Of a DNA stretch of 64,000 nucleotides, positions 2,135 to 18,605 are shown one piece after another. The translations under genes and the position numbers were made by a program. The notes under the pieces are model-generated. The model was not told where the DNA came from. It searched no databases and saw nothing but the letters and a program-made list of their open reading frames with translations. How positions within the stretch are numbered: position 1 is the first letter of the stretch; each line of letters begins with the position of its first letter. This stretch comes from an uncultured Clostridia bacterium. Its GTDB lineage: Bacteria; Acidobacteriota; Aminicenantia; UBA2199. The DNA is taken from NCBI GenBank assembly GCA_964628035.1, contig CAZVPI010000007.1, positions 10,322 through 74,321 on the forward strand, in the 5' to 3' direction.

Positions 2135-2322
2135 CGTTGCCCTTCCTTACATACTTATAATATGTTCTATAAATACACCAAATAATGAAGCAAAGACCTT
2201 TACAACAAGCGTTTAAGTTATTCATTCATTTATTACCACATTAATGTGATATTCATTTCTCTTCTATTGGTTCTCTTTAACAACTCGCCCCCTTTAAATA
2301 CACTCAATGTGATGGAATCCAC

Positions 2323-3552: not shown

Positions 3553-3607
3553 AGATCCCCCTTCCCGTCGAGCCGTCGTGCGTTCCGTGCTTGTTGTCTG
3601 AAGGTCA

Positions 3608-7051: not shown

Positions 7052-8913
7052 TACTCCATCCTACTCTTGAAAAATCGTTCGGTTTCCTTGTCTTGGAAAT
7101 AAACATAGCACCCTTTCAGGCCACGTGAAAGCAGAACTCGGTACGTATTTTTTACTAAACTTAGGAAATTGTCCTTGCTCTTTTTCACTACTGGGTCGGC
7201 GGAGCAGGCCTTGTCGCCGATCCATTTTTGGGCATCGAAAGAATAGCAGAGGTCCTTGCCAAAGATTATCCCGACGTAGTCGAACTCGAAGCCCTGGGCC
7301 GTGTAGATGCAGCCGACCTGATCTATGCCCCCGGGATCATTGGCCCAAAGAGTGGCTTTGGGAATACCCTTAGCAAGGCGGGTAGCCTCCGGCTTGGCAT
7401 TCCAGGGGCGATGAAAGTCATCGATCTTCACGTCGTCGACCAGGGTCCCATCGGGACGGGCATCGGACCAGGACCAGCAAAAACCGGCGGCCAAGCGGGC
7501 GCTGAAGCCCTCTACCGCCTTGGCCCGGATCGCCTTATCCAGTTCTTCAGGCGACGGTAATATCCTGAAATCGAACTCCTCCTCCCTGGTGTTCCAAAGC
7601 ACGTTGGCCGTGCGGTGGATCCCTAGAGTATTTTCTATCCAGGCGACGAAACCCTGTGAGCCGGCGCAGCGAAACTGGATGTCGAGAGTGAACTCTTCGA
7701 TATTGGTCATGAGCGCGTTCCCGGCCTTGACGATGTAGTCGGTCGACCCTATCTCACCGGGTCGCACAACTTGGTCGTTATCAATGAAGAAGACGCAGAC
7801 CCGCGCCGCTTTTAAAAGCTCCTCCACCTGGGGTTTGTTCGATTTCTTCTGGAAGCGTGTATTACTAGTTTCGCGGATGCGGTGCGACTCGTCGCAGATT
7901 AGAACATCGACCTCGTCGGGCTGGGCGCCGGCATAACTGTTGAAATACTTGAATTGAACACTGCCTCGCCTGCCGATTACATTGCGCAGAGTCTCGGTAA
8001 AGGCCCGAGATCCGGTGGCGTAATGGGCGTTGAATCCCTTGCGGAGCAATTCAGCCATCAGATTGATGGCAATCACCGACTTTCCTGTGCCCGGGCCACC
8101 CCGGACAATAATCACATATTTTTGCCGCATGTGAAAACCGCGGTCCACGATGCCCAGGATCTTGTCGAATACGACACGCTGCTCGTCGAGAAGAATATAC
8201 TCAGCCTTGCCCTCGATCACACCGGCCACATGGTCCATCAGTTTTTTGCTGGGGCGGTACTTGCTCTCCTCGACCCGGCGCAAGACTTCCATCCCATTCC
8301 CTTTCTTGAGGCGCCGATCCAGGTATGCGCAGATGGAGTCGAAATCGTCTGCAGTAAAGACGGGAGAAGATGCGATAAGAGAGTCAAACTTTGACGCGAA
8401 AAGGACATCCTTTGGTTCCGGCGCATAGTTATGCAGATAAGCGCAGGAATGCAGGTCAACTGGATTGTCGTCAGCATAAAAAGCCGTGTGCGTATCCTTA
8501 AGATATTGTTTGTAATAATCAACCTGGGCCGAAGGATGCAGCACATCTGTGTATCCTCCGGCAAGGATAGTGGACAGTTCGTTGTCGCCAATGGCTTCCC
8601 GGCATTTCCCCCACTGCTTGAGTTCAACGATGACCGCATTGTCCATATCGTCTTCATTCCTGCCGCAGACCATACAATCCAGCCTTTTCGAGCTCAAGGG
8701 AAGTTGGTATTCAAGCAGAATGCCATGATCGACCAATCCCGCGTGTTGGATAACGTCCTTCATCCTTATGAGCGAGTTGTTCCAGGAGCGGATCTCGGCC
8801 TCAGACGGGTTGTATCGGAAATGCTCGAAAAAGGAGCGCCGCAATTTTTCCGAGATCTGGTTGCGAACCGTGTCCTCGATGAAATTCTTAGAATTCCCGG
8901 CGTAAAGCCTCAT
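7051..8913 (-). CDS. DUF2075-family (Schlafen-like) P-loop ATPase/helicase with N-terminal PD-(D/E)xK-like nuclease domain
   Basis: 620 aa. The N-terminal region has D...ELK (RLDCMVCG...NAVIVELKQW). Walker A is IIVRGGPGTGKSVIAINL and Walker B/DExH is VLICDESHRI. The C-terminal DUF2075 region (FVAWIENTL..., CIYTAQGFEFDYVGIIFG) follows. It overlaps the MazG-like gene by 4 nt and the SNF2 gene by 1 nt. Confidence 0.8.
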   Translation of the reverse strand: MRLYAGNSKNFIEDTVRNQISEKLRRSFFEHFRYNPSEAEIRSWNNSLIRMKDVIQHAGLVDHGILLEYQLPLSSKRLDCMVCGRNEDDMDNAVIVELKQWGKCREAIGDNELSTILAGGYTDVLHPSAQVDYYKQYLKDTHTAFYADDNPVDLHSCAYLHNYAPEPKDVLFASKFDSLIASSPVFTADDFDSICAYLDRRLKKGNGMEVLRRVEESKYRPSKKLMDHVAGVIEGKAEYILLDEQRVVFDKILGIVDRGFHMRQKYVIIVRGGPGTGKSVIAINLMAELLRKGFNAHYATGSRAFTETLRNVIGRRGSVQFKYFNSYAGAQPDEVDVLICDESHRIRETSNTRFQKKSNKPQVEELLKAARVCVFFIDNDQVVRPGEIGSTDYIVKAGNALMTNIEEFTLDIQFRCAGSQGFVAWIENTLGIHRTANVLWNTREEEFDFRILPSPEELDKAIRAKAVEGFSARLAAGFCWSWSDARPDGTLVDDVKIDDFHRPWNAKPEATRLAKGIPKATLWANDPGGIDQVGCIYTAQGFEFDYVGIIFGKDLCYSFDAQKWIGDKACSADPVVKKSKDNFLSLVKNTYRVLLSRGLKGCYVYFQDKETERFFKSRME

Positions 8914-9278
8914 TTGAATTCAGTATATTTCTTGGCCGAACCCTTAGCCTTATCGACAGGGTATCGGACTTCATTATGACCGATTTTTTTCCGAATCGCC
9001 TTCTCGATATCTATCTTGGCCTCATGAGCAAAAAGCATGGAAAAGATTAGGATATCGGCAATTTCAGAGGCAAGCCTCTCCCTTTTCTCCTTTGTGATCT
9101 TCCTAGATTCCTGAGGGGTCTTCCAGAGGAAATGTTCCAAGAGCTCTCCTGCCTCTATTGAAATCGCTTCCGCCAGATTCTTCGGATCATGAAACTGCGC
9201 CCAATCACGACGGTCACGAAAAACCAGGATCGTCTCCATTAAATCCCCAGGCATCTTCATTTCATGCCCCCCATCCAT
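8910..9278 (-). CDS. MazG-like all-alpha NTP pyrophosphohydrolase (start may be the internal METILVF at about 9239)
   Basis: The EAGELLEHFLWK and ASEIADILIFSMLFA motifs (E-x-x-E...E-x-x-D metal-binding helices) are typical of MazG/YpjD-like NTP-PPases. The protein is 110-122 aa. It is the first gene of a three-gene overlapping operon. Confidence 0.7.
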   Translation of the reverse strand: MDGGHEMKMPGDLMETILVFRDRRDWAQFHDPKNLAEAISIEAGELLEHFLWKTPQESRKITKEKRERLASEIADILIFSMLFAHEAKIDIEKAIRKKIGHNEVRYPVDKAKGSAKKYTEFK

Positions 9279-9320
9279 CTATTTGAAATCCACTGTTTCA
9301 GGCTAGCTAATTTTAAAAAA

Positions 9321-9349
9321 CGCAGCATTCAATGTCAACCCCAATATTT
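9321..9349 (-). promoter_or_regulatory. sigma70-like promoter TTGACA-N17-TAAAAT upstream of the MazG/DUF2075/SNF2 operon
   Basis: The minus-strand sequence reads TTGACAttgaatgctgcgtttttTAAAAT, with the -35 at 9349..9344 and the -10 at 9326..9321. It sits about 40 nt upstream of the MazG-like start in an AT-rich intergenic region. Confidence 0.35.
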
Positions 9350-9566
9350 TCCTTTTTTTGCCCTGATATAGCCAAGTTCAGATATTTGAATGAGAGAAAA
9401 TAGGGAAAAATGTGATCCCTTCGAAATACGAAGCCAGAGGTTCGACGTCCAAGGGAATTGGGGTCAGGTCTTGAAATGACAGATCCTTCATCGTCCCTAT
9501 TCATGTTTCCGCAGGGCCAAGCTGATGCTCGAATAATGCATCCCCAGATAATCGCCGATTTCACGC

Positions 9567-9860
9567 ATGGTCTATCCTGCCCTCAACATAGGCCCGGTAA
9601 AGAAACATGAGGGGCGGGTCTTGAACACGTTCATCCATACCATCGCCCACCAGATCGGCGTCGGCATGCTGAAGCTCCTGGGAACGGTTTTCGCCTCCAC
9701 CCGCTTCCCGGCCGACCTGGCCGATCCCCTCGGCTACCTGGCCGTGCTGACCCTGTTCGCCGTGCTGCTGACCCTGGCCAAGAAGATCGCCTGGATCGTG
9801 CTGGCCGTGGGCTGGGGATTCATCGTCATCAGGCTGTTGATGATCATCTTCAAGATCTAG
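9567..9860 (+). CDS. small membrane protein, two TM helices (true start possibly MLKLLG at about 9669)
   Basis: The ORF track shows a 97-aa ORF. The C-terminal two-thirds are hydrophobic (LGYLAVLTLFAVLLTLA, IAWIVLAVGWGFIVIRLLMIIF). It lies at the low-GC/high-GC junction and I do not recognise the family. Confidence 0.35.
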   Translation: MVYPALNIGPVKKHEGRVLNTFIHTIAHQIGVGMLKLLGTVFASTRFPADLADPLGYLAVLTLFAVLLTLAKKIAWIVLAVGWGFIVIRLLMIIFKI

Positions 9861-9861
9861 A

Positions 9862-10011
9862 GACGTTAGACATTAGCCGTTAGACGGTAGACGAGAGAAC
9901 GAGCACGAGACATTAGACGTTAGACGTCAGCAAGAGAAAGCAAGTGAAAAAGGAGGGGAGTCGCTCTACTTAATGCGTTTCCTTGTCACTCGTCACTCTT
10001 CACTTGTCACC
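9862..10011. repeat. modular intergenic repeat: TAGACGT-type tandem units, a GAAAGCAAGTGAAAAAGGAGG box, then a GTCACTC-type array
   Basis: agacgttagacattagccgttagacggtagacgag...gacattagacgttagacgtcagc is followed by cttgtcactcgtcactcttcacttgtcacc. The same modules recur in at least 18 other intergenic regions. Confidence 0.7.
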
Positions 10012-10023
10012 AAAGTTCGCCTG

Positions 10024-10506
10024 TTAAATGAACAACGTGAACTTGGACTCCGAGGCGTCGGCGATGAACGAGGCGACGCCGCCGATCGCGACGCCGTCGA
10101 TCAGGTCCTCCTTCTTGATCTCCATGACGTTCATGCTCATCTCGCAGGCGGTGAGCTTGACGCCGAGGTCCTGCGCCTGCTTGAGCAGCTGGGGCAGGCT
10201 GGTGACGTTGTGGGCCTTCATCATCTTCTTGAACATCCAGCGGCCCAGGCCGCCGAAGTTGAACTGGGAGGGGCCCAGGCGGTCGATGCCGCCGCGGTTC
10301 AGCAACCCCAGCATGCGGCCCATCAGCCCCTTGCCGGTCAGGTTGCCCTTCTGGATGGCCTTCAGCCCCCAGAAGGTGAAGAACATGGAGACCTGCATGT
10401 CGAAGGCGGCGGCGCCGGTGGCGATGATGAAGGCGCCCATCACCTTGTCCATGTCGCCGCTCATGACCACCAGGCTCGCTTTCTCAGGCGTTTGCGCGTC
10501 GCTCAT
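10024..10506 (-). CDS. dsrE: DsrE/DsrF-like sulfur-relay family protein
   Basis: 160 aa, reading MSDAQTPEKASLVVMSGDMDKVMGAFIIATGAAA...TACEMSMNVMEI. This is a DsrE-fold protein with a conserved Cys, and it is the last gene of the tusA-hdr operon. Confidence 0.7.
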   Translation of the reverse strand: MSDAQTPEKASLVVMSGDMDKVMGAFIIATGAAAFDMQVSMFFTFWGLKAIQKGNLTGKGLMGRMLGLLNRGGIDRLGPSQFNFGGLGRWMFKKMMKAHNVTSLPQLLKQAQDLGVKLTACEMSMNVMEIKKEDLIDGVAIGGVASFIADASESKFTLFI

Positions 10507-10533
10507 TGATCTCCTCCTCGGGATTCGTTTCGG

Positions 10534-11622
10534 CTATTTCAGGCCGGCAAAAAACAGGGCCGCCGGCCGGTAGACGACGTGGGCGAACTTGCTGAAGGGG
10601 AAGGTGACCAGCAGGTCGAAGACGAAGACGATGTGCACGGCCACGGTCACGTAGGCCGCCGGCAGCAGGCCCAGGAAGCGGAAGCCGACGATGGCGAAGC
10701 CGCTGAGCACCGAGAGCGCCAGCAGCAGCAGGAAGGCCCAGTCGCTGGGGTGGGAGTACTTGCCCACCGCCGTCTTCCCCGTCAAACGCAGGGCAAGGTA
10801 GTACCCCAGCCCCAGCGCGCAGGCGGCGCCGGAGACGGATCCGATTGCCAGCGATACCCAGCGCGGCCAGGGCAGCCAGCCGAAGTCGACGGCGCCGATG
10901 ATGATCGTGGCCAGCAGCATGCCCATGAAGCCCCAGGAGACCCCCATGTGCGCCAGGCGCCGCAGGCGGTCGTCGGCGCACTCGCCGAAGCGGTCCTGCA
11001 GCACCGACTCCTTGAGCGTCTGGAACGCCGAGTGGCCGGCCTTTTCCGCCCGCAGCGCGGCGAGGACATTCGGCGTGCCGCTCAGGTTGCGGGCCAGGAT
11101 CCACACCTGGATGGCGGCGACCCCGGCGATGAAGGCGACCAGGACGATCCCCGCCCAATGGACGGGCCCCAGGGGGATGAAGGACTGGAAGTCGAAGCGC
11201 TCCATGTCGGGATGCGGCTGCCGCGCCAGCAGCACCAGGGCCAGGGCGACGGCGCTCAGCGCCAGCCAGGTGACCAGCGATCCCAGTGAGGAATACACGG
11301 CGTCGGCGGCGCGGCCGAGCGCGTAGCGCCGGGTGGCGAAGCGGCGTAGGGCCATCATCAGCGAGGCGGGCTCGGCCTGGCGCGGGCAGGTCTCGCTGCA
11401 CTCGCCGCAGTAATAGCACAGCCAGGGCTCGGGCGCGGAGAGCAGGCGCCTTTCCAGGCCGAGCAACGCGTAGCGGATCATGCGCCGCGGGAAGGATGCG
11501 GCCTCCTGCGAGAGCGGGCAGATGGCCGAACAGGTGCCGCAGCTGTAGCAGGCCTCGAGGTCGAAGGCGCCGAGCTTCTTGATCTCGGCCAGGACCCGGG
11601 GATTGACCTTTTCCATGCTCAT
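10534..11622 (-). CDS. QmoC/HdrE-like membrane subunit: N-terminal HdrC-like 2x[4Fe-4S] ferredoxin fused to a multi-TM cytochrome b-like domain
   Basis: Start MSMEKVNP at about 11622 forms an ATGA overlap with the upstream gene stop. Two CxxCxxCxxxCP motifs are present (CYSCGTCSAICP, CYYCGECSETCP). About 6 TM helices follow, with conserved His residues (HSAF, HMGVSWGF, HIVFVFD, FAHVVY) as in HdrE/DsrM/QmoC. Confidence 0.7.
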   Translation of the reverse strand: MSMEKVNPRVLAEIKKLGAFDLEACYSCGTCSAICPLSQEAASFPRRMIRYALLGLERRLLSAPEPWLCYYCGECSETCPRQAEPASLMMALRRFATRRYALGRAADAVYSSLGSLVTWLALSAVALALVLLARQPHPDMERFDFQSFIPLGPVHWAGIVLVAFIAGVAAIQVWILARNLSGTPNVLAALRAEKAGHSAFQTLKESVLQDRFGECADDRLRRLAHMGVSWGFMGMLLATIIIGAVDFGWLPWPRWVSLAIGSVSGAACALGLGYYLALRLTGKTAVGKYSHPSDWAFLLLLALSVLSGFAIVGFRFLGLLPAAYVTVAVHIVFVFDLLVTFPFSKFAHVVYRPAALFFAGLK

Positions 11623-11897
11623 TTCTCCCCGGCCAGCGAGTAGCGGTGGAAGCCCTCGCCGTCGGCCTTCTCCGAGGCCCTGACCCGGCCGTAGCGCACG
11701 AAGCCCATCACCCACCAGGTGACCTGGGGCTCGGGGGCGCCCAGCTCGCGCGCCAGCTCGGGCAGGGTCAACGGCCCGCGGGCCGCCAGCAGCTTCAGGA
11801 CCCGGCCGCGGACGGCGAATTCCTGGCGGGCGGTCTCGCGCCCGCGCCCGAGAATGGCGACGCTCTCGGGAAAGCGCTCGCGGCTGCTGTCATTCAT
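11619..11897 (-). CDS. small winged-helix-like protein (putative regulator), conserved hypothetical
   Basis: 92 aa. The central segment VLKLLAARGPLTLPELARELGAPEPQVTWWVMGFVRYGRV looks like a helix-turn-helix. It overlaps both the hdrA end and the qmoC-like start. Confidence 0.4.
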   Translation of the reverse strand: MNDSSRERFPESVAILGRGRETARQEFAVRGRVLKLLAARGPLTLPELARELGAPEPQVTWWVMGFVRYGRVRASEKADGEGFHRYSLAGEK

Positions 11898-13662
11898 TCT
11901 CGGCCTCCCGGGCCAGCACGTCGATCATGGCCTCGATTTGTTCGTCGCTGTAGCCCTTCATCTGGGTGGCGTCGAGCGGGCAGGGGGGCAGGCAGGCGCC
12001 GCAGCCCTTGCACAGGGCCTCGACCACCTGGGCCACCTCCTTGTCCCCATAGGCGGCCTTCTCGATGGCGCCGTAGGGGCAGGCGGGCTGGCACTTGCCG
12101 CACCAGGTGCATGCATCGGCGCGGACATAGGCCACGAAAGGCTGCAGGTCGACATAGCCCTTGATCAGCAGCGCCGCGGCCTTGGCCACCGCCGCCAGCG
12201 AGGAGACGACGCTCTCGCCGGCGTTCTTCGGACCCTGGCAGGCGCCGGCGATATAGACGCCGTCGATGACCGTCTCCACCGGCCGCAGCTTGGGGTGGAT
12301 CTCGTTGTAGAAGCGGTCGGCGCCCAGCGGCAGCTTCAGCACCTTCGTCAGCCCGTCGTTGTCCCGCGCCGTCATGCCGGTGACCAGCACCACCAGGTCG
12401 GCCGCCAGCGCCACTTCCTCGCCGCCGGTGAGCAGGTCCTGGACGACCACGCGCAGGGAATCGCCGTCGCGCTCGACGCGCGGCGGCCGCTCCTCGTGGA
12501 AGCGCAGGAAGACCGAGCCCGACTTGCCCGCCTCCTCGTAGATCGTCTCGAACTTGCCGTAGGTGCGCATGTCGCGGTAGAGGTGGTAGCTGCGCACGCC
12601 GGGGAATTTCCTGGAGGCCAGCAGCGCCAGGTGGCAGGCGGCGCTGCAGCAATAGCGCGAGCACCAGCGGTTGAGGTCTTCGCCCTCGCCGTTCTGGCGG
12701 CTGCCGACGCAGTAGATGAAGGCGACCGAGCGGACTTCCCGGCCCTCGTGGAACAGCCGGCCGTCCCCCTCTTGCAGGAGTTTCTCGAACTGCGAGAGGG
12801 TGACCACCCCGGGCTGCCCGAAGGCGTACTCGCCCGGCTTGGGCCCGTACTCGGCGAAGCCGGTGGCCACCAGGATGGCGCCGACCCGGATGCGCACCGT
12901 TTCCTCCGCCGCGCCCCCTCGCCGGGAGCCTTCAGGGCCGGCGGGCCGGATGCGGATCGCCAGGTCAAACTCGCCGATATGGCCGTTTTTTCCCGCCAGT
13001 TCGGCGTTGCGGAACAGGGTGATGCCCGGCCGCTTGCGAACCTCCTCCAGCAGGGAGGCGACCAGCTCGGAGCCGACCTTGCCGGCCGGGAACATCTCGC
13101 CCAGCGCCGCGACCTGGCCTCCGGCGCGCGCCTCACGCTCAACGACGAAGACCTCAACGCCCAGGTCGGCCAGCTCGACGGCGGCGCGCAGGCCGGCGAT
13201 GCCGGCGCCCACGACCAGCACCCGCTTCACCGAGGTGACGCGGATCGGTTTCAGGGCCTCCTGGCGCAGGGCCTTCTCGACGCCGGCGCCCACCAGGTTG
13301 GCCGCCTTGCAGGTGGCGCCCGGGTGGTCGTCGGAATGGGCCCAGGAGCACTGCTCGCGGATGTTGACCTGCACGTACTGGAACGGGTTGAGCCCGGCGC
13401 GTGCCGACAGGTTGCGGAAAGTGGTCAGGTGCAGCTTGGGCGAGCAGGAGGCGACCACCAGGCCGTCAAGCCCCTGCTCCTGGATGTCCTTCATCATCTC
13501 GTTCTGCGAGGCGTCGGAGCAGGTGAACATCGAGGTCCTGGCCACGGTGACGCCGTATTGCTCCTCGATGCGCCTGCGCACCTCCTCGACGTCGATGTGG
13601 TCGGAGATGTTGCCGCCGCAATGGCAGATGTAGACGCCGATCCTCCTCTTCTTCTCTTCCAT
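11890..13662 (-). CDS. hdrA: heterodisulfide reductase subunit A (HdrA) flavoprotein
   Basis: True start MEEKKRRIGVYICHCGGNISD is at about 13662; the track ORF carries a spurious N-terminal extension. The HdrA N-terminal 4-Cys motif is present (IGVYICHCG...VVASCSPKLH...NIREQCSWAH). The FAD fold shows VLVVGAGIAGLRAA, and C-terminal ferredoxin motifs are CTWCGKCQPACP and CKGCGACLPPCP. Confidence 0.85.
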   Translation of the reverse strand: MEEKKRRIGVYICHCGGNISDHIDVEEVRRRIEEQYGVTVARTSMFTCSDASQNEMMKDIQEQGLDGLVVASCSPKLHLTTFRNLSARAGLNPFQYVQVNIREQCSWAHSDDHPGATCKAANLVGAGVEKALRQEALKPIRVTSVKRVLVVGAGIAGLRAAVELADLGVEVFVVEREARAGGQVAALGEMFPAGKVGSELVASLLEEVRKRPGITLFRNAELAGKNGHIGEFDLAIRIRPAGPEGSRRGGAAEETVRIRVGAILVATGFAEYGPKPGEYAFGQPGVVTLSQFEKLLQEGDGRLFHEGREVRSVAFIYCVGSRQNGEGEDLNRWCSRYCCSAACHLALLASRKFPGVRSYHLYRDMRTYGKFETIYEEAGKSGSVFLRFHEERPPRVERDGDSLRVVVQDLLTGGEEVALAADLVVLVTGMTARDNDGLTKVLKLPLGADRFYNEIHPKLRPVETVIDGVYIAGACQGPKNAGESVVSSLAAVAKAAALLIKGYVDLQPFVAYVRADACTWCGKCQPACPYGAIEKAAYGDKEVAQVVEALCKGCGACLPPCPLDATQMKGYSDEQIEAMIDVLAREAENE

Positions 13663-16370
13663 CAGGACTTCCTCTTCATGCGCTCGATGTAGGCCGCCGC
13701 CTGGGCCGCCGCCGCCCCGGCGCTCAGGATGGAATCGGGGATGTCCAGCGGCCCGGTGGCGGTGCCGGCGCTGAACACCCCGGGGATGGAGGTGCGCGCC
13801 GGGTCGACCTGCTTCCCGGGCTGGGCTACGAACAGCGTCTCGTCGAAGTCCGGCCCGCCGCCGGCGAACAGCCCGCGGCAGCCGTCGCCGGCCACGATGC
13901 CCGTCGACAGCACCACCAGGTCGTGCTCGGCCTCGCGCACGGCGCCGTGGTCGTCGATGTCCTCGTAGCGCACCTTCAGGTTGCCGTTGCCGGCCTCGCT
14001 GACCTTGGCCACCTTGCCCTTGACAAAGCGCACGCCCATGGCCCGGGTTTGCTCGAAGAATTCGTCGTAGCCCTTGCCGAAGGCGCGGATGTCGATGTAG
14101 TAGATCGTGATGTCGGCCACCGGCAGCGCCCCCAGCAGCAGCTGCGCCTGCTTGAGCGAGTACATGCAGCAGACGCGCGAGCAGATGGGATTGTTCTGGG
14201 TGCGGTCGCGCGAGCCGACGCAGAAGACATAGGCGATGTTGGCCGGCGCCTTGCCGTCGCCGGGCCGCAGCACATGGTTGTAGGGGCGGGTGGGCGCCAC
14301 CAGGCGGTCCATCTGCATGGCGGTGACGACGTTGGCGTACTTGCCGTAGCCGAATGTCTCCATGAGTTCGGCCGGGAAAAGGCGGAAGCCAGTGGCCAGC
14401 ACCACGGCTCCGGCGCCGACCTCCTCGACCTGCTCGCGCTGGTCGAAGTCGATGGCGTCGGCCGGGCAGGCGCGCTTGCATTCCTGGCACTCGCTGCAGA
14501 TGCCGCAATTGAGGCAGTTGGCGGCACTGGCCAGGGCCTCCTCCTCGCTGAACGGCAGGTCGACCTCGGCGAAATCCTTGATGCGTTCGCGCGGGTGGCG
14601 CTCCGACTTCTCCACCCTGCGGGCCGGGAATTCGGCCTGCCGCGCCAGCACATCCTTTTTGTCGACGACCGGCAGCCGCGGGTCGAACTCGACATCCGCC
14701 AGCGTCTCGCCGCGCAGGAAGCGGTCGATGAAGAAGGCCGCCCGCTTGCCCAGCCCCATGGCCTGGACGATCATCGCCGGACCGGTCACGGCGTCGCCTG
14801 CGGCGAACAGCCAGGGCCGGTCGGACTGCAGCGTGCGCTCGTCGGCCCGTACCGTTCCGTCGCGGTTGAGCGGCAGCTCGCGCCGCAGGGCCGCCGCCTC
14901 GGCGCTCAAGCCGATGGCGACGATGGCCAGGTCGAAATCAGCGGTGAACTCCGAGCCGGGAACGGGCACCGTGCGGCGGCGGCCGCCGTTGCCTTCCGCG
15001 ACCGGCTTCATGCGCACGCTGCGCACCCGCCGCAGGCGGCCGTTCTCCTGCTCGAAGGCCACGGGATTGCCGAGAAACTCCAGGACCACCCCCTCGGCCT
15101 CGGCCGCCGCGACCTCCTCGCCGGAGGCCGGCATCTCGGTTCGCGTGCGGCGGTACTGCAGGACGACCCTGGCCGCCCCCAGCCGCAGCGCCGTGCGCGC
15201 GGCGTCCACGGCCACGTTGCCGCCGCCGACCACCAGCGCGCTCTTGCCGCGCAGGTCGAGCTTCTGGCCGCAGAGGACCTCGGCCAAAAACTCGATGCCG
15301 CTGAAGACCTCCGGCAGCTCCTCCCCGGGGACCATGAGCCTCCTGGGCTTGGGCGTGCCGACGGCGACGAGGACGGCGTCGTAACCGCTGTCCTTGAGCG
15401 CGCTGAGCGAATCCACGCGAGCGCTGGCGCGGATCTCCACGCCCAGGGCGGTCACGTTGCGGATGTCGCGGTCGACGACGTCCTTGGGCAGCCGGTAGTC
15501 GGGCAGGCTGGAGCGCAGCATGCCGCCCGGCTCTCGGTCGGCCTCGAAGACCGTGACCGGGTATCCCGAGCGTGCCAGGAAGTAGGCCGCGGTCAGGCCG
15601 GCCGGGCCCGAGCCGACGACCGCCACCTTCCTGTCCCGCGTATTTTCCATGGCGCCGTAGTCGGGCTCGGGATGGCGGGCGTAATACCAGTCGGCGACGA
15701 AGCGCTTCAGGTGGCGGATGTGCGGGGCGGCGCCGATCTCCTCCCGCGAGCACTCGCGCTGGCAGAAGGCATAGCAGGCGCGGCCTAGGGTGCCGACCAG
15801 CGGCGCGTCTTCCAGCACCAGCCGGAACGCTTTTTCAAACTCGCCCTGGCGGATGAGCGAGATGTAGCCGTTGGCCTTGATGCCCGCCGGGCAGGCGTAG
15901 GTGCAGGGCGAGGTGCCGGCGCGGTCGATCACGGCCTTCTTGGGCACCGCCTGGGGATAGGCGATGTGGGCCACGCGCCGCGAGACGAGGTTCTCGTTGT
16001 ATTCGTCGGGGACGGTGACGGTGCAGGCCTTCTCGCAGTCCTGGCAGCCGGTGCACTTGGCGAAGTCAACGAAGGCCGGCTTGCGCGCCACGCGGGCGCG
16101 GAAGCCGCCGGCCCCGTCGCGGCGCACCTCGCGCACCTCGCTGTAGACGCGCAGGTCGATGTTGGCGTGGCTGGCCGCCAGCGCCATCTTGGGGGTGGAG
16201 ATGCAGGAGGCGCAGTCGAGCGTGGGGAAGACCTTGCTGAGCAGGATCATCTTGCCGCCGATGCTCGGCTCCTTTTCCACCAGCAGCACCTTGTAGCCCA
16301 TGTCGCCCAGGCTGACCGCCGCCTCCATGCCGGCGATGCCGGCGCCGAGGACCATCACGTCGTAGTCCAT
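13662..16370 (-). CDS. HdrL-like large HdrA homologue with inserted GltD/NfnB-like NAD(P)H-binding domain
   Basis: 902 aa. The N-terminal HdrA FAD fold reads MDYDVMVLGAGIAGMEAA. A ferredoxin motif CTGCQDCEKAC is present. The inserted GltD/NfnB-type domain reads KVAVVGSGPAGLTAAYFLARSGYPVTVFEADREPGGMLRSSLPDYRLPKDVV...ALVVGGGNVAVDAAR. The later motif CLNCGICSECQECKRACP is followed by the HdrA C-terminal part. Both its start and its stop form ATGA-type overlaps with neighbours. Confidence 0.8.
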   Translation of the reverse strand: MDYDVMVLGAGIAGMEAAVSLGDMGYKVLLVEKEPSIGGKMILLSKVFPTLDCASCISTPKMALAASHANIDLRVYSEVREVRRDGAGGFRARVARKPAFVDFAKCTGCQDCEKACTVTVPDEYNENLVSRRVAHIAYPQAVPKKAVIDRAGTSPCTYACPAGIKANGYISLIRQGEFEKAFRLVLEDAPLVGTLGRACYAFCQRECSREEIGAAPHIRHLKRFVADWYYARHPEPDYGAMENTRDRKVAVVGSGPAGLTAAYFLARSGYPVTVFEADREPGGMLRSSLPDYRLPKDVVDRDIRNVTALGVEIRASARVDSLSALKDSGYDAVLVAVGTPKPRRLMVPGEELPEVFSGIEFLAEVLCGQKLDLRGKSALVVGGGNVAVDAARTALRLGAARVVLQYRRTRTEMPASGEEVAAAEAEGVVLEFLGNPVAFEQENGRLRRVRSVRMKPVAEGNGGRRRTVPVPGSEFTADFDLAIVAIGLSAEAAALRRELPLNRDGTVRADERTLQSDRPWLFAAGDAVTGPAMIVQAMGLGKRAAFFIDRFLRGETLADVEFDPRLPVVDKKDVLARQAEFPARRVEKSERHPRERIKDFAEVDLPFSEEEALASAANCLNCGICSECQECKRACPADAIDFDQREQVEEVGAGAVVLATGFRLFPAELMETFGYGKYANVVTAMQMDRLVAPTRPYNHVLRPGDGKAPANIAYVFCVGSRDRTQNNPICSRVCCMYSLKQAQLLLGALPVADITIYYIDIRAFGKGYDEFFEQTRAMGVRFVKGKVAKVSEAGNGNLKVRYEDIDDHGAVREAEHDLVVLSTGIVAGDGCRGLFAGGGPDFDETLFVAQPGKQVDPARTSIPGVFSAGTATGPLDIPDSILSAGAAAAQAAAYIERMKRKS

Positions 16371-16371
16371 T

Positions 16372-16782
16372 TCAGGCCCCCTGAGCCGGCCGGCCCAGCT
16401 TGCGCAGCGCCTCGCTGAAGGTCACCATGTACTTCTGGAACGACTCGGCGCACACCGAGCAGACCGCCGCCATCTTCACCCGCGCCGGCTCCAGCGCGCG
16501 CGCCTTCAGCAGCGCCTGCGCCGCGGCGACGGTGGCCGCCGTGCGCCGGGTGCAGTCGGGCACGAAGGAGCAGTCGCTGCCGTCGGCGGCGATGAAGACG
16601 CCGTCGAAGCCGCGCTCGAAGGCGCGGACGATCCAGCGCGGCTTGACGGCGCTGGAGCACGGCAGGGTGATCACAAACACGCTGGCCGGGTAGTGCATCT
16701 TGTTGCGTCCAGCCAGGTCGATCCCCGGGTCGGAGACGTTGTCGGTTGAGAACACAAGGATGCGGGGCTTGAAATCATTCAT
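16372..16782 (-). CDS. mvhD: MvhD-like (methyl-viologen-reducing hydrogenase delta subunit) [2Fe-2S] protein
   Basis: 136 aa with conserved Cys (LPCSSAVKPRW...DGSDCSFVPDC...CSVCAE), typical of MvhD partners of HdrA. Confidence 0.8.
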   Translation of the reverse strand: MNDFKPRILVFSTDNVSDPGIDLAGRNKMHYPASVFVITLPCSSAVKPRWIVRAFERGFDGVFIAADGSDCSFVPDCTRRTAATVAAAQALLKARALEPARVKMAAVCSVCAESFQKYMVTFSEALRKLGRPAQGA

Positions 16783-17113
16783 GGAACGTCTTCTCCATGG
16801 TTTGGATCAGGCCCGCCAGCCGCGGGTCGGCGATGCGGTAGTGGACGTGGTTGCCCTGGCGCCGCGCCAGCACCAGCCCCTCGCGGCGCATGCGCGTCAG
16901 ATGCTGCGAGATGAGCGGCTGCGAGGCGTCGCACGCGGCGCGCAGGTCGCTGACGGTCGCTTCGCCCTTGGCCAGCCGGCAGAGCAGGAAAAGACGCTGC
17001 GGATGGGCTAGGCTCTTGAGCAGCGCCGCCACCCGGGCGCAGCGCTTCTTGGAGGCGGCAAGGTCGGACATCTGGGTCGCAGGGGGCGGTGAGGGCGCCC
17101 AGCCCCGCATCAT
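16775..17113 (-). CDS. ArsR/SmtB-family transcriptional regulator (start possibly MSDLA at about 17071)
   Basis: The HTH reads LKSLAHPQRLFLLCRLAKGEATVSDLRAACDASQPLISQHLTRMRREGLV. It overlaps tusA by 4 nt and mvhD by 8 nt. Confidence 0.75.
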   Translation of the reverse strand: MMRGWAPSPPPATQMSDLAASKKRCARVAALLKSLAHPQRLFLLCRLAKGEATVSDLRAACDASQPLISQHLTRMRREGLVLARRQGNHVHYRIADPRLAGLIQTMEKTFHE

Positions 17114-17370
17114 TTCGTCTTCTTGACGAAGAGACGCCAGAAGCCGGCGTCCTCGACCACTCCCAGGAAATCATACCGCATCTTGCCCGCCCACATGGGG
17201 ATGTCGTTGTTGGTCCCCTCGTCGGACGAAAGAACTTCCATCACGGCGCCGACCGGGACGGAGGTGACCGCCTTCTTGGCTTCGAGCAGCGGCCCCGGGC
17301 AGGCCATGCCGCGGGCGTCGACCACCCTGTCGGCCTTGAGTCGCTTCAGTTCTTCCTGAGTCATGGGCAT
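17110..17370 (-). CDS. tusA: TusA-like sulfurtransferase
   Basis: 86 aa. The conserved CPxP motif is present (DARGMACPGPLLEAKK). An AAGGAG RBS lies 7 nt upstream of the ATG. Confidence 0.8.
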   Translation of the reverse strand: MPMTQEELKRLKADRVVDARGMACPGPLLEAKKAVTSVPVGAVMEVLSSDEGTNNDIPMWAGKMRYDFLGVVEDAGFWRLFVKKTK

Positions 17371-17393
17371 ACTCCTTGATCAAGGATTCGCGA

Positions 17394-17434
17394 GAATATT
17401 AGAATATTAAAATATTCTTATATTCACTGTCAAG
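17394..17434 (-). promoter_or_regulatory. AT-rich 15-2-15 inverted repeat (GAATATTAGAATATT-AA-AATATTCTTATATTC) overlapping a sigma70-like promoter upstream of tusA
   Basis: The arms match 14/15 when reverse-complemented. On the minus strand, TTGACA (17434..17429) is followed by an 18-nt spacer and TAATAT (17410..17405). This sits about 25-65 nt upstream of the tusA ATG and is a candidate operator for the operon-encoded ArsR-family regulator. Confidence 0.4.
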
Positions 17435-17738
17435 AGGCGAACGAAATTTCCGGGATGACACTGGCGCCCTTGGTTCGATCAGCTTCTGGCCAGCACAAAC
17501 ACCAACCTGCCCAAAATTCCTTTGCAGGAAACCTAATGAAACGGGCAGGACGAAAGCACCCATTTCCAAGCACCAAATCCACCTGGCGGGGACGATGCCC
17601 CCTGGCGGGGGCGATGGGACCCAAACCAGGGCCCTCGAAAGGAAAAGGCAAAAGTGAGGCGAACAGGCAATTTATTTTGGACGGCGCTGGTTTCTTGCTC
17701 GCACTAACACTAACGCTGCGAAATGGGTTTCCTTATCG

Positions 17739-18332
17739 TTACTTCCAGCGGAAATTTTCGTACGGGATCCTGACCGCCGTCCACGTCCCCTGGTTCGTGC
17801 CGTTGTCCCAGGTCCAGGTGCCGCTGATGGCCGGGATGGGAGTGATGAACTTGTGCCCCGCCAGGTCGCTGAACACGAGAGCCAGGCTGCCGGCGTTGGC
17901 CAGCCAGGTGCCGAAATGGCCGCGGTCGTCCCGGAACGTTCCCTGCAGCAGGCCGGCGCCCTCGAGCAGCACCGTGAACTTGGTCTCCGCGCTGTTGGCG
18001 TCCAGGGCGGTGATCTCCCAGGGGCCGCGGGGATCGAACAGCCGCGCGACCAGCGCCGTGTCGTGATAGATGATGACGCTGGCGGCCGCCGCCTCGGTCT
18101 CCTCGTCGACCAGCACCTCGACCGTGTTCCGGGAGTCCTCGGCGACGTAATTATAGGCGACCTCCTCGAGCTCCTTGTGCGTGTACACGCCGTTGGCCGG
18201 GCTGCCGCTCACGCCGGCCTCCACGGTGACGGCAAGCTGGTAGTCGGGATGGCCGATGAACTTGCAGCCGGCCAGGGGCAGGAGCGCCACGCCGGCGGCC
18301 AGGACGAATCCGAGTGTTCGCTTCATGAGCAA
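17739..18332 (-). CDS. lipoprotein, unknown function
   Basis: 197 aa. It has a signal peptide with a lipobox (LLPLAGC). The mature part is rich in T/G/W. I do not recognise the family. Confidence 0.5.
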   Translation of the reverse strand: MLMKRTLGFVLAAGVALLPLAGCKFIGHPDYQLAVTVEAGVSGSPANGVYTHKELEEVAYNYVAEDSRNTVEVLVDEETEAAAASVIIYHDTALVARLFDPRGPWEITALDANSAETKFTVLLEGAGLLQGTFRDDRGHFGTWLANAGSLALVFSDLAGHKFITPIPAISGTWTWDNGTNQGTWTAVRIPYENFRWK

Positions 18333-18605
18333 AGCTCCTTGGGGATCGAGCCCATATTATAATACAAATGCGCAAGATCGCCAAATGGAAATGGATGATC
18401 ACGTGTTAGCGTTGGTGTTAGCAGGAAATTCAACGAACAAGAGGGGATAGTGACGATGGCAGCAGCGGCATCGATAAGGGCGTATGGCTTTTGCCGTACG
18501 CCGTACGCCCTCTGTCGAACGCCAATCTCCATGAAGTTCCCTTGCAACCCGGTTCGACACCCCCTCGTCGAATATGATACAGTATACAAGGAAAACGACC
18601 ATCCC

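Follow-up and report, generated by a model that had tools for sequence, protein, structure and literature searches.

QmoABC, among the closest described systems, comprises two HdrA-like flavoproteins, an MvhD-type module that forms a domain of QmoB, and QmoC, in which an HdrC-like 2x[4Fe-4S] part is joined to a dihaem cytochrome b; the qmo genes neighbour aprBA, and in different lineages soluble HdrC and HdrB replace QmoC (the QmoAB-HdrCB form; Neukirchen et al. 2023, PMC10504309). The HdrABC/HdrL clusters of sulfate reducers (D. autotrophicum locus VIII, S. fumaroxidans Sfum_0819-0824 and D. reducens Dred_1325-1330) contain tandem hdrL and hdrA genes with mvhD, together with hdrC-hdrB and an FdhB-like iron-sulfur protein. 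HdrL is defined as an HdrA to which an NAD(P)H-binding part of the GltD/NfnB type is fused, with mvhD in the same gene neighbourhood (Strittmatter et al. 2009, PMC2702500); the complexes are produced specifically under sulfidogenic conditions (PMC5947623, PMC4759654) and are proposed to link NAD(P)H to a sulfur-related acceptor by flavin-based bifurcation or confurcation. HdrA heterodimers and HdrA-NfnB fusions are described from ANME-1 archaea (HdrA5/6, 12/13 and HdrA9-11; Chadwick et al. 2022, PMC9012536): the N-terminal domain and Cys197 are complementary between tandem HdrA paralogues, a rule that served to infer the heterodimers, and an NfnB-like insertion of ~500 aa lies inside the inserted ferredoxin domain. 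These clusters belong to archaeal methane metabolism, with HdrBC or FdhAB, and the same paper mentions no TusA or DsrE and reports no QmoC-type anchor for them. Finally, the sHdr system (hdrC1B1A-hyp-C2B2 plus LbpA) has two copies each of HdrB and HdrC, one HdrA that does not bifurcate, and lipoate-binding proteins; its genes occur together with tusA and with genes for DsrE-family sulfur transferases and regulators of the ArsR type.

The locus described here consists of eight tightly coupled minus-strand ORFs between 10024 and 17370 of the window, i.e., the whole 64-kb stretch of DNA that was analysed (Table 1). An ORF check returned the same coordinates as the first-pass annotation, including its two ATGA overlaps, and independent gene calls for the same contig in a JGI metagenome gave the identical eight genes. 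Every domain assignment made from the sequence was upheld by Pfam and NCBIfam profile searches, as was the placement of tusA at one end and DsrE2 at the other. The end coordinate originally given, 17434, coincides with a promoter-like site (TTGACA-18-TAATAT, 17433-17404). The eight genes are one operon behind a single sigma-70-like promoter, because they overlap or adjoin one another, there is a single promoter, and the operator octamer described below occurs nowhere else in the window. Upstream of the operon lie housekeeping genes, and downstream a low-GC defence island. Neither hdrB nor a separate hdrC gene was found within the window, and it held no CCG-domain protein, in agreement with the original claim that HdrB was missing; apr, sat and dsr genes were absent from its annotated (Pfam) parts.

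Table 1. Coordinates of genes and regulatory features of the operon within the window
Feature	Position	Strand	Properties
tusA	17110-17370	-	86 aa sulfur-carrier protein; PF01206, 77 bits; CPxP active-site Cys24
arsR	16775-17113	-	ATGA overlap with tusA; HTH_5/ArsR; ArsR/SmtB family repressor
mvhD-like	16372-16782	-	8-nt overlap with arsR; PF02662 (FlpD), 102 bits
hdrL	13662-16370	-	902 aa; 1-nt spacer after mvhD-like gene
hdrA	11890-13662	-	590 aa; 1-nt TGATG overlap with hdrL
Small winged-helix gene	11619-11897	-	92 aa; 8-nt overlap with hdrA
qmoC-like	10534-11622	-	ATGA overlap with winged-helix gene
dsrE2	10024-10506	-	160 aa; 27-nt spacer after qmoC-like; GAGGAGGAG Shine-Dalgarno in spacer
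Promoter and operator	17393-17433	-	Promoter scan and sequence
-35 TTGACA	17433-17428	-	Promoter scan
-10 TAATAT	17409-17404	-	Promoter scan; 18-nt gap from -35
Inverted repeat, 15+2+15 nt	17394-17408 / 17411-17425		93% complementary

Two HdrA paralogues lie at the centre of the operon, and both flavoproteins scored best against archaeal HdrA/HdrA2 models in NCBIfam. The product of hdrL, a flavoprotein of the HdrA thioredoxin-reductase type, combines HdrA halves with a GltD/NfnB core (Pfam, NCBIfam); comparison with PDB chains matched residues 153-555 to NfnB (251-271 bits against solved chains) and residues 624-893 to HdrA 289-559. A 2x[4Fe-4S]+FAD+NAD(P)H module of the NfnB/GltD type, at approximately residues 145-641, interrupts its inserted ferredoxin domain, and the protein lacks both the N-terminal and the C-terminal domain of HdrA. 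The inserted NAD(P)H domain proposed in the first-pass annotation is therefore real, and the residues expected to bind FAD and NAD are conserved, since the motifs GSGPAG and GGGNVAxD were invariant in 14 diverse HdrL sequences; its sets of cysteines are conserved as well. With mvhD immediately upstream, the protein has the composition and setting by which HdrL was defined. The product of hdrA (483 bits to the HdrA2 model) has a C-terminal 2x[4Fe-4S] domain and the N-terminal cluster domain, with a CHCGG motif, that had been recognised from the sequence; it aligns with residues 3-234 and 314-650 of M. wolfeii HdrA, while the inserted ferredoxin domain is absent. None of 77 HdrA orthologues had a cysteine at the Cys194/197 position and all 77 had CxCGGN; HdrL C53 and C56, the latter equivalent to Cys197, were kept in ~96% of aligned orthologue sequences. 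The features of the M. wolfeii enzyme, a dimer in which Cys197 of one HdrA completes the N-terminal cluster of the other, are thus split between HdrA and HdrL. This strict complementarity implies that HdrL and HdrA form an obligate heterodimer, which would be the core of the complex.

The remaining redox subunits were more divergent. The protein first annotated as MvhD does belong to PF02662, but to an atypical subfamily without the canonical N-terminal cysteine motif: where M. wolfeii MvhD has FCCNWC, this protein has FSTDNV in the alignment, the CCxxC-containing [2Fe-2S] pattern is lacking, and none of 77 orthologues had a cysteine in positions 6-25. Instead, C42, C71, C77, C108 and C111 were invariant in the orthologue alignment, the last two forming C108xxC111. 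The QmoC-like protein consists of an HdrC-like 2x[4Fe-4S] domain, whose sequence (the N-terminal third) matches HdrC chains in the PDB, followed by six predicted transmembrane helices. Matches to Fer4_8 and Nitrate_red_gam, and alignment with NCBIfam qmoC (NF038018) over model positions 7-360 of 360, confirmed the proposed ferredoxin-cytochrome b membrane anchor; its domain architecture is that of QmoC, while the score of 213 bits is under the equivalog cut-off of 300. Eight Fe-S cysteines (C25-C35 and C69-C79), C215 and four histidines (H155, H225, H330 and H348) were invariant, so that ligands for haem b appear conserved and the anchor may bind two b haems. The AlphaFold model of the anchor was of moderate quality (pLDDT 70), with a weak match to the NarI fold. 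Full-length similarity to QmoC, the six predicted helices and the four invariant histidines together suggest that the complex is probably linked to quinone.

Between hdrA and the qmoC-like gene is a small gene that had been designated 'wHTH'. A minimal winged helix was borne out by a weak HTH_20 match in Pfam, by an AlphaFold model (pLDDT 75) with a helix-helix-helix-strand-strand core, and by Foldseek matches to SmtB, Z-alpha and MarR wings. It is translationally coupled, kept in most relatives and not obviously a second regulator. Its family contained 170 representatives after clustering at 50% identity, with E26, W62 and Y86 nearly invariant and no cysteine among orthologues. The protein could be a small subunit of conserved sequence or a factor specific to the cluster, or else a DNA-binding regulator.

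The architecture was first described as unusual, and this does not hold. Relatives of HdrL were found in at least 587 GTDB species, and 80 related loci were inspected, of which 68 were complete downstream; these came from Actinomycetota, Chloroflexota, Bacteroidota, Bacillota, Acidobacteriota, Gemmatimonadota, Proteobacteria and Thermoplasmata, among others. As far as the contigs extend, the order tusA-mvhD-hdrL-hdrA was kept in all 80, and 59 of the 68 complete loci had the winged-helix gene between hdrA and hdrC/qmoC. The arrangement is therefore far beyond chance, and the locus is one member of a conserved cluster present in hundreds of species rather than a rarity. The end module was QmoC in 40 complete loci and HdrC plus HdrB in 28, where hdrC-hdrB sits exactly at the position of qmoC in this locus; at least nine swaps between the two were placed on the HdrL tree. 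The absence of HdrB and HdrC is accordingly true of the window but merely one of two interchangeable states among relatives. In relatives of the HdrCB type, HdrB kept only the C-terminal set of CCG cysteines. No published description of the function of this cluster was found in the literature, nor any enzyme activity, expression or interaction data for its members.

Both end-module variants retained tusA, usually with a DsrE-family gene, across more than ten phyla. There were 79 TusA matches in the 80 loci, with tusA adjoining the redox genes wherever the contig reached upstream of mvhD; it directly preceded mvhD in most loci, with arsR (as here) or dsrE2 sometimes intervening. Cys24 of TusA was invariant in 76 orthologues. 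The dsrE2 product (PF13686, DrsE_2, 165 bits) is predicted to be soluble, without a transmembrane segment, and DsrE2B-like; it scored 77 bits against NCBIfam DsrE2 (cut-off 210), and its active-site Cys121 was kept in 94% of orthologues. Its closest structures were PDB 3PNX and 2QS7, the latter being of the DsrE2B type (PMC11094781). A DsrE2-type gene scoring > 90 bits occurred in 44 of the 80 loci, and genes flanking the related clusters were enriched in rhodaneses (16 loci), SQR-like flavoproteins (6), TauE (4) and DsrC-like proteins (4), besides further DsrE proteins and cysteine desulfurase-like proteins. The adjacency of tusA, the frequency of DsrE2 and the enrichment of sulfur genes in the flanks argue that a sulfur relay is part of the system.

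A palindromic operator covers the -35/-10 region, and its inverted repeat contains three copies of the octamer AATATTCT; these are the only three in 64 kb, against 0.26 expected. Three related loci also have TTGACA and an AT-rich, ATATTnnAATATT-like stretch ahead of tusA. The operator would most likely be bound by the product of the second gene, which, as first annotated, is an ArsR/SmtB-type protein (NCBIfam HTH_metalloreg, 84 bits) and resembles SqrR/BigR. SqrR (73 bits), BigR, HlyU and YgaV were its best solved relatives; Cys45 aligns with the alpha-2 sensing cysteine of SqrR/BigR, which in those sensors forms a polysulfide bridge with a C-terminal alpha-5 cysteine, and the AT-rich palindrome of the operator lies across the promoter of an operon for sulfur handling, as it does for those regulators. 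Unlike them, it has His111 at the position of the C-terminal alpha-5 sensing cysteine and carries an N-terminal Cys25 (kept in 3/3 closest orthologues), and its score against the BigR model (76 bits) is under the cut-off of 155. The missing second cysteine counts against reading it as a persulfide sensor. Nevertheless, persulfide-responsive control is suggested by its closest solved relatives, by two-cysteine SqrR/BigR-type regulators near the cluster in two related loci, and by a CsoR-family regulator adjoining the Desulfolucanica cluster, as that family includes the persulfide sensor CstR.

Comparison with the known systems confirmed that the operon has a Qmo/Hdr-type inventory, with two HdrA paralogues, an MvhD module and an HdrC-plus-cytochrome-b anchor, and that, as the first-pass annotation had argued, it is neither QmoABC, sHdr nor Flx-Hdr. 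In contrast to QmoABC, MvhD is a separate and atypical protein, one HdrA paralogue contains the NfnB/GltD module, there is an extra winged-helix protein, and tusA and dsrE2, rather than aprBA, bracket the genes; linkage to apr or sat is absent from the annotated parts of the window, and most carriers are not sulfate reducers. The HdrABC/HdrL clusters share the tandem HdrL and HdrA, but the window has QmoC where they have hdrC-hdrB, they contain the FdhB-like protein, and tusA, dsrE2, the winged-helix gene and a membrane anchor are not described there. The likeness to sHdr extends to the position of a small hypothetical gene after hdrA; yet the window has HdrL, MvhD and QmoC, with no HdrB, second HdrC or LbpA in the operon or its flanks. 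An HdrB like that of M. wolfeii, with two CCG domains and two non-cubane clusters, is absent from the window. FlxABCD-HdrABC systems have flxABCD beside hdrABC; no Flx-type genes occur in the operon, where the NAD(P)H site lies inside HdrL instead.

The preferred reading, given a probability of about 0.5, is that the operon encodes a Qmo/Hdr-type, membrane-anchored, NAD(P)H- and menaquinone-linked complex that reduces carrier-bound sulfane sulfur under the control of ArsR. The sulfidogenic production of the related HdrABC/HdrL complexes is a precedent for it. Several observations count against it, among them the regulator's lack of a second SqrR/BigR-type sensing cysteine and the moderate model and weak NarI match of the anchor. 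To our knowledge, the CCG domain of HdrB/HdrD is the only Hdr site for sulfur-sulfur chemistry, and the QmoC-type version retains TusA and DsrE2 without it. Also, NADPH, at about -320 mV, needs no intermediary to reduce either sulfane sulfur or menaquinone, so a simple reductive model leaves the three-port HdrA machine unexplained.

An unlikely alternative is an NADPH:menaquinone (or NADPH:disulfide) oxidoreductase that bifurcates to ferredoxin in the manner of FixABCX or Mvh-Hdr, with TusA and DsrE2 merely accessory, whether in regulation, in cluster protection or repair, or in supplying a high-potential disulfide to the HdrCB-type versions. HdrA modules are classic bifurcating units, the repeated swaps make QmoC and HdrCB interchangeable as a high-potential exit, TcuB, which has the same architecture as the QmoC-like protein, is annotated as an electron shuttle, and electron transfer from NADPH to menaquinone plus ferredoxin is thermodynamically favourable by textbook potentials. 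However, the inserted domain that would face ferredoxin is occupied by the NfnB module, which leaves only the MvhD side, and this alternative explains neither the retention of the sulfur carriers in both variants nor the likeness of the regulators to persulfide sensors.

Quite unlikely is an oxidative, flavin-based bifurcating enzyme, in which the donor at the remodelled MvhD/HdrA side would be either sulfide or a thiol/persulfide couple on a carrier (about -270 mV). QmoC would hand one electron to menaquinone, and the second would reach NADP+ by way of the N-domain cluster, the inserted ferredoxin domain and the NfnB module; TusA and DsrE2 would accept the sulfane-sulfur product. Textbook redox potentials permit this, and it would suit a three-port architecture with an NADP(H) module where ferredoxin usually has its port, as well as the invariant CxxC of an MvhD-like subunit without its canonical motif and usually encoded just after tusA; SQR-like genes and TauE near some clusters, and the many carriers from facultative or non-sulfidogenic taxa, agree with it. 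Yet neither MvhD nor HdrA sites are known to take electrons from a thiol or from sulfide, a catalytic site for sulfide oxidation is absent, the soluble HdrCB-type relatives have no quinone acceptor, and the scheme is wholly inferential.

It is very unlikely that the operon encodes a 'type II' Qmo working for APS reductase, or an Hdr complex that reduces DsrC during dissimilatory sulfate or sulfite reduction, the role suggested for HdrABC/HdrL: the Qmo-like inventory with its QmoC/HdrCB alternation, the HdrA-like subunits of type II Qmo, which also occur in organisms without Dsr or Apr (PMC10504309), the sulfate-specific production of HdrABC/HdrL, the DsrC-like genes near four loci and a dsrC-dsrM-dsrK set directly upstream in one locus are outweighed by the lack of apr, sat and dsr in the annotated parts of the window, by carriers that mostly (Bacteroidales, Actinomycetes, Gemmatimonadota, Chloroflexia) are not known for dissimilatory sulfur metabolism, by the sub-threshold qmoC score, and by the FdhB-like gene of the HdrABC/HdrL clusters, for which TusA and DsrE are not mentioned.

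Under the preferred reading of a sulfane sulfur-reducing complex, the subunits would assemble into a single complex with NADPH and menaquinone as putative partners, working presumably in the reductive direction, and electron bifurcation may accompany the proposed sulfur chemistry. HdrL would supply the cysteine that completes the N-terminal cluster of HdrA, and its inserted ferredoxin domain would be wired into the NfnB-like FAD/NAD(P)H module rather than open to free ferredoxin. Electrons from the cluster of the thioredoxin-reductase domain would enter the HdrC-like head of the QmoC-like subunit and pass through two b haems to or from menaquinone. TusA and DsrE2B would be dedicated carriers that deliver or remove protein-bound sulfane sulfur (persulfide or polysulfide), having been loaded by rhodaneses or cysteine desulfurases encoded elsewhere. 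The likeliest role of the system would then be to use NADPH for turning sulfane sulfur on the carriers into sulfide, with coupling to the quinone pool, and the operon would be switched on when sulfane sulfur builds up (persulfide stress).

The minus strand between 10024 and 17370 was packed with eight ORFs, separated by spacers that were nearly nil. The gene assignments of the first-pass annotation were all confirmed with Pfam and NCBIfam, and independent gene calls on an identical JGI metagenome contig agreed on the operon genes.

Genes of the operon and the junctions between them
Gene	Position	Strand	Remark
tusA	17370-17110	-	first gene
arsR	17113-16775	-	ATGA overlap with tusA
mvhD-like	16782-16372	-	8-nt overlap
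hdrL	16370-13662	-	1-nt spacer
hdrA	13662-11890	-	TGATG overlap
92-aa gene	11897-11619	-	8-nt overlap
qmoC-like	11622-10534	-	ATGA overlap
dsrE2	10506-10024	-	27-nt spacer, strong Shine-Dalgarno sequence

G-C content was 0.68-0.70 across the operon, matching the remainder of the window, and dropped to 0.50 directly downstream, in a separate island. Rfam detected no RNA family across 9000-19000, a span that takes in the operon and its flanks. A scan for intrinsic terminators returned fewer sites than shuffled sequence and no convincing one within the operon. The annotated remainder of the window (~17-54 kb) consisted of housekeeping genes (rpoN, hpf, HPr kinase, PTS, peroxiredoxin, Fur and others); apr, sat, dsr and hdrB genes were absent from it.

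The low-GC island (662-9278, minus strand; 0.50 against ~0.67) contained an RmuC-like gene (PADLOC RTasRmuC, 209 bits), a DUF1016/YhcG nuclease (PDC-S02, 455 bits), an SNF2/NOV_C helicase (HmaA, 585 bits), an SLFN-g3/DUF2075 helicase and a MazG-like gene; on the matching JGI contig a SIR2_2 gene came next. The island had a promoter-like site of its own at 9338-9310 and was probably a horizontally acquired defence island. Between it and the operon lay a GC-rich, hydrophobic-looking ORF of 97 aa (9567-9860, plus strand), convergent to dsrE2, which had a gene call on the JGI contig but no family assignment, followed by a short degenerate tandem repeat downstream of dsrE2 (9861-9936, three copies of a AGACGTTAGAC-type unit). 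Another degenerate tandem repeat lay upstream of the promoter (17579-17616, two copies of the 19-nt unit CCxCCTGGCGGGGxCGATG); related loci also held short tandem units in the spacer that precedes tusA, differing from those of the window.

A promoter scan identified a TTGACA-18-TAATAT site at 17433-17404, with the tusA start 34 nt downstream. The site was embedded in an inverted repeat of 15+2+15 nt (17394-17408 / 17411-17425, 93% complementary), the building unit of which was the octamer AATATTCT; there were three copies of this octamer in the 64-kb window, all of them here, where 0.26 were expected by chance. At the three nearest loci of other organisms (L011, L012 and L065), TTGACA and then an AT-rich "ATATTnnAATATT"-like stretch again preceded tusA. 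The operon's regulator was an ArsR/SmtB protein, and its best solved relatives were SqrR (73 bits) and BigR (59 bits), which are persulfide sensors, and then HlyU and YgaV. Cys45 aligned with the alpha-2 sensing cysteine of SqrR, His111 stood at the place of the C-terminal sensing cysteine, and Cys25 was kept in the three closest orthologues. Given the operator and a SqrR/BigR-like regulator with this cysteine pattern, the operon is likely to be autoregulated by a thiol-based sensor.

The two HdrA paralogues were complementary in what they had lost. HdrA (590 aa) aligned to residues 3-234 and 314-650 of M. wolfeii HdrA, a span from which its domain set could be read: the N-terminal cluster domain (C13-H-C15-G-G, C48, C73), an FAD domain with its own [4Fe-4S] cysteine set (C318, C334, C338, C339) and the C-terminal 2x[4Fe-4S] domain. 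The inserted ferredoxin domain was missing, and FPAGKVGS occupied the position of Cys194/Cys197. HdrL (902 aa) began at the FAD GxGxxG motif, and so had no N-terminal domain, and stopped where the FAD domain of HdrA stops, and so had no C-terminal ferredoxin domain. It retained FPTLDC53ASC56, and its inserted ferredoxin domain was present in two halves (C106-C116 and C625-C635, with additional invariant C619 and C622). The GltD/NfnB-type NAD(P)H domain already suspected within one HdrA homologue separated these halves and proved to be a complete unit, scoring 251-271 bits against solved NfnB chains, with Fer4_20 cysteines (C156, C160, C199, C203, C207), the FAD motif GSGPAG and the NAD(P)H motif GGGNVAxD, consensus YRR. 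Among 77 HdrA orthologues, none had cysteine at the Cys194/197 site or the inserted domain and all had CxCGGN, while HdrL orthologues kept C53/C56.

In the HdrA of M. wolfeii, the N-terminal cluster of one protomer is completed by Cys197 of its partner, and tandem paralogues with complementary loss of the N-terminal domain and Cys197 have been interpreted as obligate heterodimers, for which this loss would be the signature (PMC9012536). ANME-1 HdrA9-11 carry an NfnB insertion at the same place, and it is in this insertion site within the inserted ferredoxin domain that they resemble HdrL (PMC9012536). We infer from these motifs an HdrL:HdrA heterodimer; its branch otherwise leading to free ferredoxin would be wired to an NADP(H)-binding flavin. 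In one related locus HdrL was broken by an in-frame TAG (L067 10028-12730), and hdrA was split by frameshifts in two others (L046 and L021); these are probably assembly errors or pseudogenes. Selenocysteine was ruled out, since the interruptions were an in-frame TAG and frameshifts, with no TGA at cysteine positions.

The operon had been described as unusual, which did not stand: the cluster was found in at least 587 GTDB species, and the window holds an ordinary member of the family. Close full-length HdrL homologues numbered in the thousands; the figure of 587 for confirmed relatives is a lower bound, from an HdrL-alignment scan that took one genome per GTDB species. Among the best 80 of these loci, the core order tusA, mvhD, hdrL, hdrA was kept wherever the contig reached, with arsR or dsrE2 at times between tusA, mvhD and hdrL. 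At the 68 of these loci that were complete downstream, the end module was a QmoC-like gene in 40 and hdrC plus hdrB, at the same position, in 28. The small winged-helix protein was encoded in 59 of the same 68, and went undetected in Bacteroidota, in the single Spirochaetota locus and in a deltaproteobacterial locus with a frameshift. A DsrE2-type gene (>90 bits) occurred in 44 of the best 80 loci, where it stood ahead of tusA, between mvhD and hdrL, or last in the cluster, with weaker DsrE-family matches in others; 38/80 had a same-strand upstream ArsR gene. The closest among the matches listed, L011 (an Aminicenantes MAG, ~71% HdrL identity) and L065, had the exact eight-gene order of the window; the contig of L012 (~70% HdrL identity) ended after hdrL.

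Carriers included Actinomycetota (Propionicimonas, Phycicoccus, Gaiellales, Thermoleophilia), Bacteroidota (MAGs assigned to Marinifilum and Proteiniphilum), Bacillota (Desulfofundulus, Desulfolucanica), Alpha-, Beta- and Gammaproteobacteria, Chloroflexota, Acidobacteriota, Gemmatimonadota, Kiritimatiellota, Spirochaetota and Thermoplasmata archaea. On a neighbour-joining HdrL tree the end module changed between QmoC and HdrCB at least nine times, and both states occurred within each of Actinomycetota, Chloroflexota, Gemmatimonadota and Bacillota.

The MvhD-like subunit matched FlpD (102 bits), yet was atypical. FSTDNV stood at the position of the canonical MvhD FCCNWC, and this region was free of cysteine in 77/77 orthologues (L011-L090), while C42, C71, C77 and a C108-x-x-C111 pair near the C-terminus were invariant; by its residues it is a distinct subfamily. 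The QmoC-like protein aligned to the full NCBIfam qmoC model at 213 bits (equivalog cut-off 300). It combined an HdrC-like head with eight invariant cysteines (55-65 bits to solved HdrC chains) and six predicted transmembrane helices with four invariant histidines (H155, H225, H330, H348); the invariant Cys215 fell in a predicted cytoplasmic loop. Foldseek matches of its AlphaFold model (pLDDT 70) to HdrC and NarI were weak. PF27541 was listed in precomputed annotations on nearly all QmoC-like homologues (P0162-P0279). In HdrCB-type relatives, HdrB kept the C-terminal CCG cysteine set alone (C219, C254, C255, C289 and C292; L007 15000-15962 and 28 HdrB orthologues) and would thus hold one non-cubane cluster, against two in methanogen HdrB; a PDB search with one such HdrB gave a single weak match.

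The 92-aa protein was modelled as a minimal winged helix (pLDDT 75), its top Foldseek matches being SmtB, Z-alpha and MarR wings; a PDB sequence search produced nothing informative. It had no cysteine, E26, W62 and Y86 were near-invariant, and its family comprised ~170 representatives after clustering at 50% identity, chiefly stand-alone proteins of 75-115 aa, publicly annotated as MarR or ArsR regulators. Both sulfur carriers had their conserved cysteine (TusA Cys24, DsrE2 Cys121). DsrE2 was soluble, with 3PNX and 2QS7 as its nearest structures, the latter of DsrE2B type (PMC11094781). TsoR was dropped as a candidate, having an NCBIfam match under the cut-off and no literature that could be found.

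That tusA and dsrE2 were merely unrelated neighbours was ruled out, because in all related loci reaching that far tusA adjoined the redox genes and DsrE-family genes recurred beside it; the genetic linkage between these carriers and the redox operon is thus conserved. Outside the core, further DsrE-family proteins recurred, along with rhodaneses (16 loci), SQR-like flavoproteins (6), TauE (4) and DsrC-like proteins (4). ArsR regulators were also recurrent, having both SqrR/BigR cysteine positions in L087 and L042, and the Desulfolucanica cluster adjoined a CsoR-family gene. Cysteine desulfurase-like genes lay near the cluster in Bacteroidota. One of these loci, L068 from a Bacteroidetes MAG, had the order dsrE2-tusA-mvhD-hdrL-hdrA-qmoC; directly upstream of dsrE2 (L068 2208-9983) were a crp-family regulator, a NifX-like gene, a 506-aa cysteine-desulfurase-like gene, DsrC with both C-terminal cysteines, a DsrM-like membrane protein, a DsrK/HdrD-like CCG protein and an IscS-like desulfurase. 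Dissimilatory sulfite reduction is not known from this lineage.

The expectation that the operon was neither QmoABC, sHdr nor Flx-Hdr agreed with all three comparisons: the qmoC score was under the cut-off and apr linkage was lacking, there was no HdrB or LbpA as in sHdr, and there were no Flx genes. A true Qmo serving APS reductase was ruled out, apr and sat being absent from the annotated parts of the window and the taxa wrong. In its working Qmo was the closest system, through shared subunit logic and the QmoC/HdrCB alternation (PMC10504309). The 902-aa protein satisfied the published definition of HdrL, and the HdrABC/HdrL complexes of sulfate reducers resemble the system of the window (PMC2702500, PMC5947623, PMC4759654); however, their clusters have their own FdhB-like protein and HdrCB, and TusA, DsrE2, the winged-helix protein and a membrane anchor are not described there. 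A full-text literature search, with some relevant reviews outside it, found no description of an HdrL/HdrA cluster bracketed by tusA and dsrE2; papers naming TusA and HdrA, by their titles and the parts consulted, concerned sHdr, Dsr or unrelated systems, and those naming TusA, MvhD and HdrA did not concern this cluster. The parts are all of known kinds; their combination, its wide distribution and the modular swap of QmoC and HdrCB seem not to have been described before. The cluster is a real, conserved and functionally uncharacterised variant of Hdr/Qmo-type complexes.

The analysis showed the cofactor-binding motifs, HdrL/HdrA complementarity, TusA/DsrE-family linkage and operator. Homology to the M. 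wolfeii structure, in the summary given by PMC9012536, suggests a complex with three ports around HdrA-type flavin(s). The first would be the MvhD and C-terminal-ferredoxin side. The second, of high potential, would run in the window type from the FAD-domain cluster through HdrC and two b haems to menaquinone, and in HdrCB-type relatives would end at the single non-cubane cluster of HdrB. The third, formerly the ferredoxin port, would now end in the NfnB-type FAD that binds NAD(P)H. In other systems the Dsr and sHdr enzymes receive sulfane sulfur from TusA and DsrE2 (PMC11094781). Since these carriers are inherited together with the redox genes and have persulfide-sensor-like regulators, rhodaneses and desulfurases as neighbours, we propose carrier-bound sulfane sulfur as the physiological substrate or product. 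We put the probability of this general picture, a Hdr/Qmo-type complex that processes carrier-bound sulfane sulfur, at about 0.5.

The favoured direction, NADPH-driven reduction of sulfane sulfur to sulfide coupled to the quinone pool, seems the more likely one and is held more tentatively than the general picture. One less likely rival is an oxidative bifurcating enzyme that passes electrons from sulfide or thiol to menaquinone and NADP+. Another is a Fix-like NADPH:quinone/ferredoxin enzyme, to which the carriers would be accessory. A CCG domain is missing from the QmoC-type version, although TusA and DsrE2 are both kept, so a sulfur-reactive site must be sought elsewhere: the remodelled MvhD-like subunit with its CxxC is a candidate, tusA usually lying just upstream of mvhD, and QmoC Cys215, the NfnB-type flavin and HdrL C619/C622 are others. 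A type II Qmo or a DsrC reductase was also considered; for the former, the supplementary files of Neukirchen et al. 2023 held no locus-level detail. It is improbable that the cluster represents a previously unrecognised, very widespread class of flavin-based bifurcating enzymes, with the protein-carried sulfide/persulfide couple (TusA/DsrE2) as one of three redox partners; such an enzyme could, for example, split electrons from sulfide or thiol between menaquinone (QmoC) and NADP+ (NfnB module). If true, many soil and sediment heterotrophs could use sulfide to make NADPH and would not need reverse electron transport for it.

The principal machines known to carry out flavin-based electron bifurcation, and to link sulfur chemistry in the cytoplasm with the membrane, are Hdr/Qmo-type modules; to our knowledge, the substrate is known for only a few of them. 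The present cluster unites such a module with a dedicated TusA/DsrE2 relay and a likely persulfide-responsive switch. It occurs in hundreds of species, whose soil, sediment, gut-type and subsurface lineages do not count as sulfur specialists. The repeated exchange of QmoC and HdrCB is a natural experiment on end-module function, a question that stands equally for Qmo, and the proposals can be tested in cultured carriers such as Desulfofundulus, Desulfolucanica and Propionicimonas. If the proposed role in sulfane sulfur processing is right, the cluster would provide a common anaerobic route for reactive sulfane sulfur, tied to the NADPH and quinone pools, with a bearing on sulfide tolerance, cryptic sulfur cycling and redox balancing.
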